Of a stretch of 64,000 bases of DNA, positions 60,514 to 63,159 are shown in pieces. The position numbers were made by a program, and so were the translations under genes. The stretch's first letter is position 1; each line of letters opens with the position of its first letter. The stretch lies in the NCBI RefSeq assembly GCF_003334785.1, contig NZ_QOWV01000003.1, one strand, 5' to 3'. The notes under the pieces are model-generated. The model was not told the origin of the DNA. It ran no database searches and saw only the letters and a list, made by a program, of their open reading frames with translations. Source of the stretch: Escherichia coli. Its GTDB lineage: Bacteria; Pseudomonadota; Gammaproteobacteria; Enterobacterales; Enterobacteriaceae.

Positions 60514-61773
60514 ATGGCGTGGAATCAGCCCGGTAATAACGGACAAGACCGCGACCCGTGGGGAAGCAGCAAACCTGGCGGCAACTCTGAGGGAAATGGA
60601 AACAAAGGCGGTCGCGATCAAGGGCCACCTGATTTAGATGATATCTTCCGCAAACTGAGCAAAAAGCTCGGTGGTCTGGGCGGCGGTAAAGGCACCGGAT
60701 CTGGCGGTGGCAGTTCATCGCAAGGCCCGCGCCCGCAGCTTGGCGGTCGTGTCGTTACCATCGCAGCGGCAGCGATTGTCATTATCTGGGCGGCCAGTGG
60801 TTTCTATACCATTAAAGAAGCCGAACGCGGCGTGGTAACACGCTTTGGTAAATTCAGCCATCTGGTTGAGCCGGGTCTGAACTGGAAACCGACGTTTATC
60901 GACGAAGTCAAACCGGTGAACGTGGAAGCCGTGCGTGAACTGGCCGCTTCTGGTGTGATGCTGACGTCGGACGAGAACGTAGTGCGCGTTGAGATGAACG
61001 TGCAGTACCGCGTCACCAATCCGGAAAAATATCTGTATAGCGTGACCAGCCCGGATGACAGCCTGCGTCAGGCTACCGACAGCGCCCTGCGTGGAGTTAT
61101 CGGTAAATACACCATGGACCGCATTCTGACGGAAGGTCGTACCGTGATTCGTAGCGATACTCAGCGCGAACTGGAAGAGACGATTCGTCCGTATGACATG
61201 GGTATCACGCTGCTGGACGTCAACTTCCAGGCTGCTCGTCCGCCGGAAGAAGTAAAAGCGGCGTTTGACGATGCGATTGCCGCGCGTGAAAACGAACAGC
61301 AATACATTCGTGAAGCAGAAGCGTATACCAACGAAGTTCAGCCGCGTGCGAACGGTCAGGCGCAACGTATCCTCGAAGAGGCGCGTGCGTACAAGGCCCA
61401 GACCATCCTGGAAGCTCAGGGTGAAGTGGCGCGCTTTGCTAAACTTCTGCCGGAATATAAAGCCGCGCCGGAAATTACTCGCGAGCGTCTGTATATCGAG
61501 ACGATGGAAAAAGTGTTGGGTAACACCCGCAAAGTGCTGGTTAACGATAAAGGTGGCAACCTGATGGTTCTGCCGTTAGACCAGATGCTGAAAGGTGGTA
61601 ACGCCCCTGCGGCGAAGAGCGATAACGGTGCCAGCAATCTGCTGCGTCTGCCGCCAGCCTCTTCCTCCACAACCAGTGGAGCAAGCAACACGTCGTCCAC
61701 CAGTCAGGGCGATATTATGGACCAACGCCGCGCCAACGCGCAGCGTAACGACTACCAGCGTCAGGGGGAATAA
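60514..61773 (+). CDS. hflK: FtsH modulator HflK (SPFH/band-7)
   Basis: 419-aa ORF MAWNQPGNNGQDRDPWGSSKPGGNSEGNGN... with Gly-rich N-terminus, single TM and SPFH domain. Confidence 0.95.
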   Translation: MAWNQPGNNGQDRDPWGSSKPGGNSEGNGNKGGRDQGPPDLDDIFRKLSKKLGGLGGGKGTGSGGGSSSQGPRPQLGGRVVTIAAAAIVIIWAASGFYTIKEAERGVVTRFGKFSHLVEPGLNWKPTFIDEVKPVNVEAVRELAASGVMLTSDENVVRVEMNVQYRVTNPEKYLYSVTSPDDSLRQATDSALRGVIGKYTMDRILTEGRTVIRSDTQRELEETIRPYDMGITLLDVNFQAARPPEEVKAAFDDAIAARENEQQYIREAEAYTNEVQPRANGQAQRILEEARAYKAQTILEAQGEVARFAKLLPEYKAAPEITRERLYIETMEKVLGNTRKVLVNDKGGNLMVLPLDQMLKGGNAPAAKSDNGASNLLRLPPASSSTTSGASNTSSTSQGDIMDQRRANAQRNDYQRQGE

Positions 61774-61775
61774 CG

Positions 61776-62780
61776 ATGCGTAAGTCAGTTATCGCGATTA
61801 TCATCATCGTGCTGGTAGTGCTTTACATGTCTGTCTTTGTCGTCAAAGAAGGTGAGCGCGGTATTACGCTGCGTTTTGGTAAGGTACTGCGTGACGATGA
61901 CAACAAACCTCTGGTTTATGAGCCGGGTCTGCATTTCAAGATACCGTTCATTGAAACGGTGAAAATGCTCGACGCACGTATTCAGACCATGGACAACCAG
62001 GCCGACCGCTTTGTGACCAAAGAGAAGAAAGACCTGATCGTCGACTCTTACATCAAATGGCGCATCAGCGATTTCAGCCGTTACTACCTGGCAACGGGTG
62101 GTGGCGACATTTCGCAAGCGGAAGTGCTGTTGAAACGTAAGTTCTCTGACCGTCTGCGTTCTGAAATTGGTCGCCTGGACGTGAAAGATATCGTCACCGA
62201 TTCCCGTGGTCGTCTGACCCTCGAAGTACGTGACGCGCTGAACTCCGGTTCTGCGGGTACAGAAGATGAAGTTACTACCCCGGCGGCAGATAACGCCATT
62301 GCCGAAGCGGCAGAGCGCGTAACGGCTGAGACGAAGGGCAAAGTTCCGGTCATCAACCCGAACAGTATGGCGGCGCTGGGTATTGAAGTTGTCGATGTGC
62401 GTATCAAGCAGATCAACCTGCCGACCGAAGTGTCTGAAGCGATCTACAACCGTATGCGCGCCGAGCGTGAAGCGGTAGCGCGTCGTCACCGTTCACAAGG
62501 TCAGGAAGAAGCGGAAAAACTGCGCGCGACTGCCGACTATGAAGTGACCAGAACGCTGGCAGAAGCTGAGCGTCAGGGCCGCATCATGCGTGGTGAAGGC
62601 GATGCCGAAGCAGCCAAACTGTTTGCTGATGCATTCAGTAAAGATCCGGACTTCTACGCATTCATCCGTAGCCTGCGTGCTTATGAGAACAGCTTCTCTG
62701 GCAATCAGGACGTGATGGTCATGAGCCCGGATAGCGATTTCTTCCGCTACATGAAGACGCCGACTTCCGCAACGCGTTAA
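61776..62780 (+). CDS. hflC: FtsH modulator HflC (SPFH/band-7)
   Basis: 334-aa ORF MRKSVIAIIIIVLVVLYMSVFVVKEGERGITLRFGKV...; 2 nt downstream of hflK. Confidence 0.95.
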   Translation: MRKSVIAIIIIVLVVLYMSVFVVKEGERGITLRFGKVLRDDDNKPLVYEPGLHFKIPFIETVKMLDARIQTMDNQADRFVTKEKKDLIVDSYIKWRISDFSRYYLATGGGDISQAEVLLKRKFSDRLRSEIGRLDVKDIVTDSRGRLTLEVRDALNSGSAGTEDEVTTPAADNAIAEAAERVTAETKGKVPVINPNSMAALGIEVVDVRIKQINLPTEVSEAIYNRMRAEREAVARRHRSQGQEEAEKLRATADYEVTRTLAEAERQGRIMRGEGDAEAAKLFADAFSKDPDFYAFIRSLRAYENSFSGNQDVMVMSPDSDFFRYMKTPTSATR

Positions 62781-62805
62781 TATAACGACTGCGGTACAGG
62801 TCAAT

Positions 62806-62848
62806 AAAGCCACCGCATCCTCAGGGATGTCGGTGGTTTTCTTTTTCT
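62806..62848 (+). terminator. hflKC rho-independent terminator
   Basis: gccaccg-catcctcagggatgt-cggtggt hairpin followed by tttctttttc. Confidence 0.65.
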
Positions 62849-62861
62849 ATAAGGATAATGA

Positions 62862-63059
62862 ATGAATTCGACAATCTGGCTGGCGCTTGCCCTGGTTTTG
62901 GTACTGGAAGGTTTAGGGCCGATGCTTTACCCGAAGGCATGGAAGAAGATGATCTCTGCGATGACCAATTTGCCCGATAATATTTTACGTCGTTTTGGCG
63001 GTGGACTTGTGGTTGCGGGCGTTGTGGTCTACTACATGTTGAGGAAAACGATTGGCTGA
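62862..63059 (+). CDS. yjeT: small membrane protein (DUF2065)
   Basis: 65-aa ORF MNSTIWLALALVLVLEGLGPMLYPKAWKKMISAMTNLPDNILRRFGGGLVVAGVVVYYMLRKTIG; aagga RBS; two hydrophobic segments. Confidence 0.8.
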   Translation: MNSTIWLALALVLVLEGLGPMLYPKAWKKMISAMTNLPDNILRRFGGGLVVAGVVVYYMLRKTIG

Positions 63060-63159
63060 ACAAAAAACAGACTGATCGAGGTCATTTTTGAGTGCAAAAA
63101 GTGCTGTAACTCTGAAAAAGCGATGGTAGAATCCATTTTTAAGCAAACGGTGATTTTGA

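Follow-up and report, generated by a model that had tools for sequence, protein, structure and literature searches.

The yjeT locus of Escherichia coli

The window considered here is a stretch of 64,000 nucleotides of Escherichia coli DNA (RefSeq assembly GCF_003334785.1, contig NZ_QOWV01000003.1). Positions refer to this stretch, and features lie on the plus strand unless otherwise stated. The genes for HflK and its SPFH-family partner HflC are followed by a small gene, yjeT, and then by purA. hflK (60514-61773, 419 aa) is an open reading frame (ORF) whose homologues lie upstream of hflC in related loci, and hflC (61776-62780, 334 aa), annotated 'hflC: protease modulator HflC', is located directly upstream of yjeT. 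The 81-nt spacer between the two contains an intrinsic-terminator-like element (62807-62847), formed by a hairpin with 14-bp arms (62807-62839) and a U-rich tail. It is followed by a Shine-Dalgarno motif, AAGGA (62851-62855), read from the sequence 6 nt before the yjeT start codon. The yjeT coding sequence (62862-63059) begins with ATG and comprises 65 codons and a stop; the ORF listing gives the product as MNSTIWLALALVLVLEGLGPMLYPKAWKKMISAMTNLPDNILRRFGGGLVVAGVVVYYMLRKTIG. It is separated from the purA start (63164) by a spacer (63060-63163) in which AAGCAAACGGTGATTT (63141-63156), just upstream of that start, appears to resemble the PurR operator consensus. The same spacer carries the purA promoter of a published list, which in its entry for this interval gives a constitutive promoter, CTGAAA-19-TTTAAG (PMC3946193).

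Identification of the gene relies on the ORF, a Pfam match, genome annotation and selection on the coding frame. Residues 5-60 of the 65 in YjeT align with positions 1-56 of the 56-position Pfam model DUF2065 (PF09838; E 6.8e-21, 74.5 bits). The gene is annotated 'yjeT: DUF2065 domain-containing protein' between hflC and purA in 5426/5426 complete E. coli genomes. A 501-nt query centred on it, overlying annotated hflC, yjeT and purA, is found at 99% identity or more in 5406 of the same 5426. Comparisons with Dryocola, Buttiauxella, Cedecea and Edwardsiella give dN/dS values of 0.07-0.14, with dS near saturation. Among 1.84 billion cluster representatives, an all-against-all search retrieves 201 relatives at E <= 0.001, nearly all of 58-66 aa; homologues recovered by word-indexed search come from Enterobacterales only, and NCBIfam holds no model for the family. 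yjeT is thus a genuine, conserved protein-coding gene under purifying selection. It is also an already known and annotated one, being the same gene as E. coli K-12 yjeT (DUF2065/PF09838, COG 'YjeT' family) with no difference. As a sequence feature it is ordinary, and it belongs to a family without assigned function.

Two other reading frames in this stretch were considered and rejected, since the conserved and selected DUF2065 frame explains it. One begins at an ATG 4 nt upstream of the yjeT start, in another frame (62858-62980, 40 aa); the other is an antisense ORF of 80 aa (62821-63063, minus strand) that overlaps yjeT. Each has the appearance of a by-product of the yjeT frame.

A preliminary description of this DNA had recognized yjeT as a DUF2065 gene with its own ribosome-binding site immediately behind hflKC. 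The ORFs, the Pfam match, the E. coli annotation and the AAGGA motif agree with that account. Its placement of the gene start 14 bp past the hflC terminator also holds, the ATG lying 14-15 nt after the terminator tail. The limits it assigned to the feature, 62806-63059, are right at the 3′ end, where the ORF indeed stops. At the 5′ end they are not, as 62806 marks the foot of the hairpin and the gene begins at 62862.

Linkage of DUF2065 genes with hflKC

Conserved linkage with hflKC in other genomes had been suggested as a check on the functional link that the preliminary description considered plausible, with its absence counting towards refutation. This check was made by tblastn with the Hfq, HflX, HflK, HflC and PurA proteins of the window. 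hflC lies directly upstream of the DUF2065 gene, on the same strand, in 80/80 loci. These are the best 80 of 231 confirmed matches in a scan of one genome per GTDB species, and they belong to Beta- and Gammaproteobacteria. The sample derives from a four-sequence DUF2065 alignment that biases it towards Betaproteobacteria. It consists mainly of related Burkholderiales, chosen by one peptide pattern and similarity rank, and does not amount to 80 independent events. Beyond Burkholderiales, it covers Nitrosospira, Ferrovaceae, Aromatoleum, Thiothrix, Chromatiales, Wenzhouxiangellaceae, Salinivibrio and several Enterobacterales. Across 81 distinct loci, the median distance from the hflC stop to the DUF2065 start is 18 nt, and 31 of these loci have 10 nt or less between the two.

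More distant relatives, sharing 27-48% identity with YjeT, were looked up singly. The order hflK-hflC-DUF2065 is found in 10 of these 12, one of them on a short contig where the upstream fragment was identified as the C-terminus of HflC. The remaining two, with proteins 76% identical, belong to one alphaproteobacterial clade (L002 and L084-L086; GCA_033344895.1 and relatives). There, the DUF2065 gene sits between a divergent soluble lytic transglycosylase gene and uvrB, directly upstream of the latter, and no Band_7 gene occurs within 6 kb upstream of it.

The surroundings of the gene trio vary. The gene following DUF2065 is hisZ in 65 loci, purA in 16, degP in four (and in three loci added later), uvrB in four and another gene in two. 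In Beta- and Gammaproteobacteria the wider order is hfq-hflX-hflK-hflC-DUF2065-hisZ/purA. In alpha-type loci, that is, those of relatives of proteins labelled Alphaproteobacteria or Minwuiales by NCBI, it is thyA-folA-hflK-hflC-DUF2065-degP, and another lineage has hflK-hflC-DUF2065-purA without hfq-hflX. The linkage thus holds across at least four wider gene contexts, and the only constant neighbour is hflC, together with hflK. Five alpha-type loci have an ATGA in which the stop codon of hflC overlaps the start codon of DUF2065, a classical signature of translational coupling. Few purely genomic signs predict a functional, and usually physical, partnership as strongly as gene order that is conserved across lineages with such overlaps. 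The persistence of adjacency with hflC in alpha-, beta- and gammaproteobacteria, through turnover of all other neighbours, therefore favours YjeT as a partner of HflK/C-FtsH, and supports the link that had at first been thought plausible. On this genomic ground, yjeT is probably a dedicated genetic partner of hflK-hflC.

In the alpha-type loci L087, L089, L096, L098 and L100, a gene for a DegP/HtrA-type periplasmic protease directly follows hflK-hflC-DUF2065, which brings two systems of envelope quality control together at one place.

Coevolution was assessed by a mirror-tree comparison of 71 distinct loci, in which the distances between YjeT proteins correlate with those of HflC (0.74), HflK (0.75), HflX (0.72) and Hfq (0.65). 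Once HflX is controlled for, YjeT and HflC retain a partial correlation of 0.28 (permutation p 0.001), and the reverse control, YjeT with HflX given HflC, leaves 0.11 (p 0.06). The same partial statistic reaches 0.82 for HflK and HflC, which are proven partners. The mirror-tree lends weak support to a link between YjeT and HflC.

The linkage is interrupted in Edwardsiella (L066-L070). About 1.6-1.7 kb is inserted there between hflC and yjeT (for example at L069 4376-6000), including an ORF of 370 aa for a polytopic membrane protein on the opposite strand (L069 4698-5810), and yjeT still adjoins purA. Cut off in this way from hflC, the Edwardsiella gene must be transcribed independently of hflKC, and co-transcription is dispensable in this genus.

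The hflC-yjeT spacer and expression of yjeT

The hairpin at 62807-62839 reads AAGCCACCGCAUCC, loop UCAG, then GGAUG-U-CGGUGGUUU, and is followed by the tail UCUUUUUC, which extends to about 62847. An 88-nt segment containing it folds with -27.7 kcal/mol (z = -3.7), and 0/200 shuffled sequences fold as well. A consensus terminator scan calls the inner stem (62815-62830) terminator-like, and the element 62807-62847 as a whole has the GC-rich hairpin and immediate U-tract by which intrinsic (Rho-independent) terminators are recognized in sequence. Rfam gives no family match in 62600-63300, which argues against a known riboswitch or small RNA. A promoter scan finds no sigma-70-like site over the same interval.

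Similar arrangements recur wherever the spacer between hflC and the DUF2065 gene measures 60-100 nt. A GC hairpin with a U-tract occurs in Enterobacterales, in Salinivibrio, in several Gammaproteobacteria and in one other lineage (L003, L061-L065, L072, L074, L078 and L080-L083). These hairpins are unrelated in sequence to that of E. coli; the structure recurs, the sequence does not. Beta- and alpha-type loci have gaps of 0-40 nt or ATGA overlaps, with no room for a hairpin. Given this split, the coupling of DUF2065 expression to that of hflC varies by lineage.

According to an RNA-seq study, yjeT lies within one complex operon of 14 genes with read-through at internal terminators (PMC4161252). 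E. coli yjeT is probably expressed mainly through read-through of the terminator-like element, and YjeT would therefore be present at a lower level than HflK/C. The proposed picture for Gammaproteobacteria, E. coli included, is that of a gene placed behind a terminator-like hairpin and expressed by read-through, below HflK/C. In Beta- and Alphaproteobacteria the gene would be tightly or translationally coupled to hflC.

Architecture of the YjeT protein

The AlphaFold2 (AF2) model of YjeT, built from a 96-sequence alignment, has a pLDDT of 93.3 and contains helices at residues 2-22, 24-35 and 39-64, in keeping with the two membrane segments initially described. Transmembrane helix 1 (codons 2-22, 62865-62927) carries E16-G17, with the GAA codon of E16 at 62907-62909, and P20. 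Next comes a short, basic amphipathic helix with a predicted cytoplasmic orientation (codons 24-35, 62931-62966), containing P24, W27 and K/R28; its assignment draws on the model and on conservation, as does that of helix 3 (codons 39-64, 62976-63053), which includes transmembrane segment 2 and bears R43, G46 and G53. Over 176 family sequences, the near-invariant positions are E16 (99%), G17 (99%), P20 (91%), P24 (99%) and W27 (85%) in the first half, and R43 (98%), G46 (98%) and G53 (97%) in the second. They compose a DUF2065 signature of proteins of about 60-65 aa, E-G-x2-P-x3-P in helix 1, then W-(R/K), then R-x2-G-x6-G at helix 2, which E. coli YjeT displays with E16, G17, P20, P24, W27, K28, R43, G46 and G53. 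As modelled, the protein is a helical hairpin: helix 1 holds a Glu embedded in the membrane, a turn kinked by Pro leads into the basic amphipathic connector, and helix 2 presents an Arg and then a G-x6-G packing face.

Positive charges are concentrated in the connector, where residues 23-45 contain on average 4.05 Lys and Arg, compared with 0.06 at the N-terminus and 0.48 at the C-terminus. By the positive-inside rule, this would place the loop in the cytoplasm and both termini, of 3-5 residues each, in the periplasm.

Four cluster representatives (P0170, P0192, P0228 and P0264) are natural tandem duplications of DUF2065, with 117-124 aa and four transmembrane helices. Both halves of each retain the E-G … P … R-x2-G-x6-G motif, and the duplications arose independently, more than once; one tandem gene (L095 3941-4309) sits between hflC and hisZ. 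The AF2 model of one tandem has a pLDDT of 94.3 and a pTM of 0.81, the alignment combining natural tandems with self-concatenated single-copy sequences (pseudo-tandem). The result hints that two hairpins pack against each other and, given the pseudo-tandem alignment, is suggestive, and only suggestive, of a dimer for the single-hairpin proteins.

Searches for remote relatives yield little. Foldseek and other fold searches of the PDB return nothing specific. In a Pfam scan at E <= 10, the only matches are DUF2065 and, marginally, DUF4345 and DUF7940, and NfeD (PF01957) and OB-fold domains are absent. The match of YjeT residues 7-62 to positions 7-65 of the 119 in DUF4345 (PF14248) is marginal (E 0.025) and not significant; DUF4345 (~119 aa) is as long as a tandem DUF2065, and the two families may be distantly related.

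Physical association and published data

The PDB (2026, including the HflK/C-FtsH entries) contains no chain that matches YjeT, the best match being an unrelated protein (E 0.56). yjeT is also absent from two HflK/C papers and their supplements (PMC12005517, PMC12048511) and from a membrane (Peptidisc) interactome (PMC6697469), in material whose supplements may be incomplete. YjeT provides only about one tryptic peptide favourable to mass spectrometry (MS), and MISAMTNLPDNILR is suited to targeted MS. In the maps of the native 'nautilus' form of FtsH-HflK/C, the membrane region was left unassigned (PMC12048511).

In the literature searched, no study is devoted to YjeT, DUF2065 or COG3242, and yjeT appears in passing in operon lists, screens and a microarray table. 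When overexpressed, it came through two of the three rounds of a screen for Ala-Ala toxicity/export (PMC10299036). A Dickeya Tn-seq table gives scores of -11.1 for hflK, +0.06 for hflC and -1.4 for yjeT; it is not discriminating because hflC itself scored +0.06. A Salmonella Tn-seq study names yjeT among starvation-stress genes, in a passage that does not mention hflKC.

YjeT and the HflK/C-FtsH assembly

The reading favoured by the genomic evidence, and in our judgement a fairly likely one, is that YjeT would serve the HflK/C-FtsH assembly as an accessory membrane component or as a modulator. YjeT would be an inner-membrane hairpin with two transmembrane helices and a basic amphipathic helix at the cytoplasmic face. 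It would act inside the bilayer and the cytoplasmic leaflet and not in the periplasmic cage, since it has almost no periplasmic surface. It is probably a dimer, in which the membrane-embedded Glu16 and the interfacial Arg43 are likely functional or contact residues. A more specific version is offered tentatively, as one that may well prove wrong. YjeT would then be an unrecognized third component, with the dimeric hairpin lodged between transmembrane helices that belong to the HflK/C ring or to FtsH, on the side of the cytoplasmic leaflet. From there it could influence how the ring assembles or opens, how substrates enter or how local lipids behave, through the invariant buried Glu16 and Arg43.

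Several observations weigh against a partnership with HflK/C-FtsH. YjeT has neither a chain in the PDB nor a mention in the HflK/C papers and interactome searched. A terminator-like hairpin lies between hflC and yjeT in E. coli and in other Gammaproteobacteria. The minus-strand gene of 370 aa separates the two in Edwardsiella, and the uvrB-linked alpha clade is devoid of a Band_7 gene in the 6 kb upstream. YjeT is nearly without periplasmic exposure, whereas nearly all the mass of HflK/C is periplasmic. In Dickeya, the strong score of hflK is not matched by that of yjeT, with the proviso that the hflC score deprives this comparison of discriminating power.

Part of this evidence suits a YjeT that would be an independent small membrane protein, related for instance to ions, protons or small molecules via its buried Glu16. 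It would then stay beside hflC because of operon inertia or common requirements for expression, and would be mechanistically unconnected with HflK/C-FtsH. The hairpin that divides hflC from yjeT in Gammaproteobacteria, the retention of the gene where linkage is lost (Edwardsiella and one alpha clade) and the lack of a PDB chain all fit such a protein. So do the passage of overexpressed yjeT through two of three rounds of the Ala-Ala screen (PMC10299036) and the naming of yjeT in the Salmonella starvation-stress passage that leaves hflKC unmentioned. This explanation nevertheless appears unlikely: adjacency with hflC outlasts every other neighbour in three proteobacterial classes, with gaps of 0-10 nt and ATGA overlaps that would be unusual for unrelated genes, and the tandem-duplicated DUF2065 gene keeps its position next to hflC.

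YjeT might also be directed at FtsH itself, as a client, adaptor or inhibitor by a logic like that of YccA, lambda CIII, MgtR or SpoVM, and not be a structural part of the ring formed by HflK/C. Joint encoding with hflKC would then allow the regulators to be made together. The ATPase and protease domains of FtsH are on the cytoplasmic side, where the only non-membrane surface of YjeT, its basic amphipathic helix, is predicted to lie; sub-stoichiometric expression behind a terminator would likewise be fitting for a regulator. The conserved neighbour is hflC, however, and not ftsH. The tight translational coupling to hflC in alphaproteobacteria suggests production matched to HflC, and the literature searched contains no FtsH-linked phenotype or degradation data for YjeT. 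Such a role is accordingly given a low probability, somewhat below that of an unrelated membrane protein.

A functional tie to the downstream purine and histidine genes, or a mere purA leader region, is very improbable and largely refuted: hisZ or purA does come next in 81/95 loci (Beta- and Gammaproteobacteria) and E. coli yjeT does lie between the hflC terminator and purA, but alpha-type hflK-hflC-DUF2065 loci have degP in that position, the purA promoter is downstream of yjeT (PMC3946193), and YjeT is under purifying selection with a predicted membrane-hairpin fold.

Comparison with known systems

Other prokaryotic SPFH proteins have partners of the NfeD family, as in the QmcA-YbbJ and YqiK-YqiJ pairs of E. 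coli, or in the archaeal stomatin PH1511 with the NfeD protease PH1510. HflK/C is the SPFH pair usually described as being without an NfeD-type partner. Like NfeD proteins, YjeT is membrane-anchored and shares an operon with an SPFH/Band_7 gene, in a pairing that persists across lineages. Unlike them, it has no NfeD/OB-fold or other soluble domain, is only about 65 aa long, and is encoded downstream rather than upstream of its putative partner.

Another point of comparison is provided by KdpF, CydX and AcrZ, small single-helix subunits encoded in the operons of their complexes, with demonstrated binding, and easily missed in proteomics and in structures obtained from overexpressed cores. YjeT shares with them its very small size, its hydrophobicity, a position beside the genes of a putative complex and, often, translational coupling. 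What sets it apart is a hairpin of two helices, a conserved Glu buried within it and a binding that is only putative; there is no sequence relationship.

Among membrane interactors or substrates of FtsH-HflK/C are YccA and SecY (PMC12048511), proteins with a fate or a function linked to the chamber of HflK/C-FtsH. YjeT resides, like them, in the inner membrane; these are large polytopic proteins encoded elsewhere, whereas YjeT is tiny and encoded with hflKC.

Implications for HflK/C-FtsH biology

As a machine of membrane quality control, HflK/C-FtsH has been studied intensively, and the opening of its cage and its role are still debated in cryo-EM papers of 2022-2026. In the literature searched, the small gene that follows hflC is not discussed; it is present in nearly every proteobacterial locus sampled. 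If YjeT is not a partner, yjeT is simply a correctly annotated conserved gene whose function is unassigned. If it is one, preparations and structures from cells that overexpress only HflK, HflC and FtsH would be incomplete, and published hflKC deletions may have altered yjeT expression unknowingly; such polar effects are possible, as the scan detected no separate promoter for yjeT in E. coli. Ready-made sites for point mutants exist in Glu16, Arg43 and the two glycines of helix 2, so that the partnership is directly testable. The putative functional link between YjeT and HflK/C is strongly supported by genomic context.
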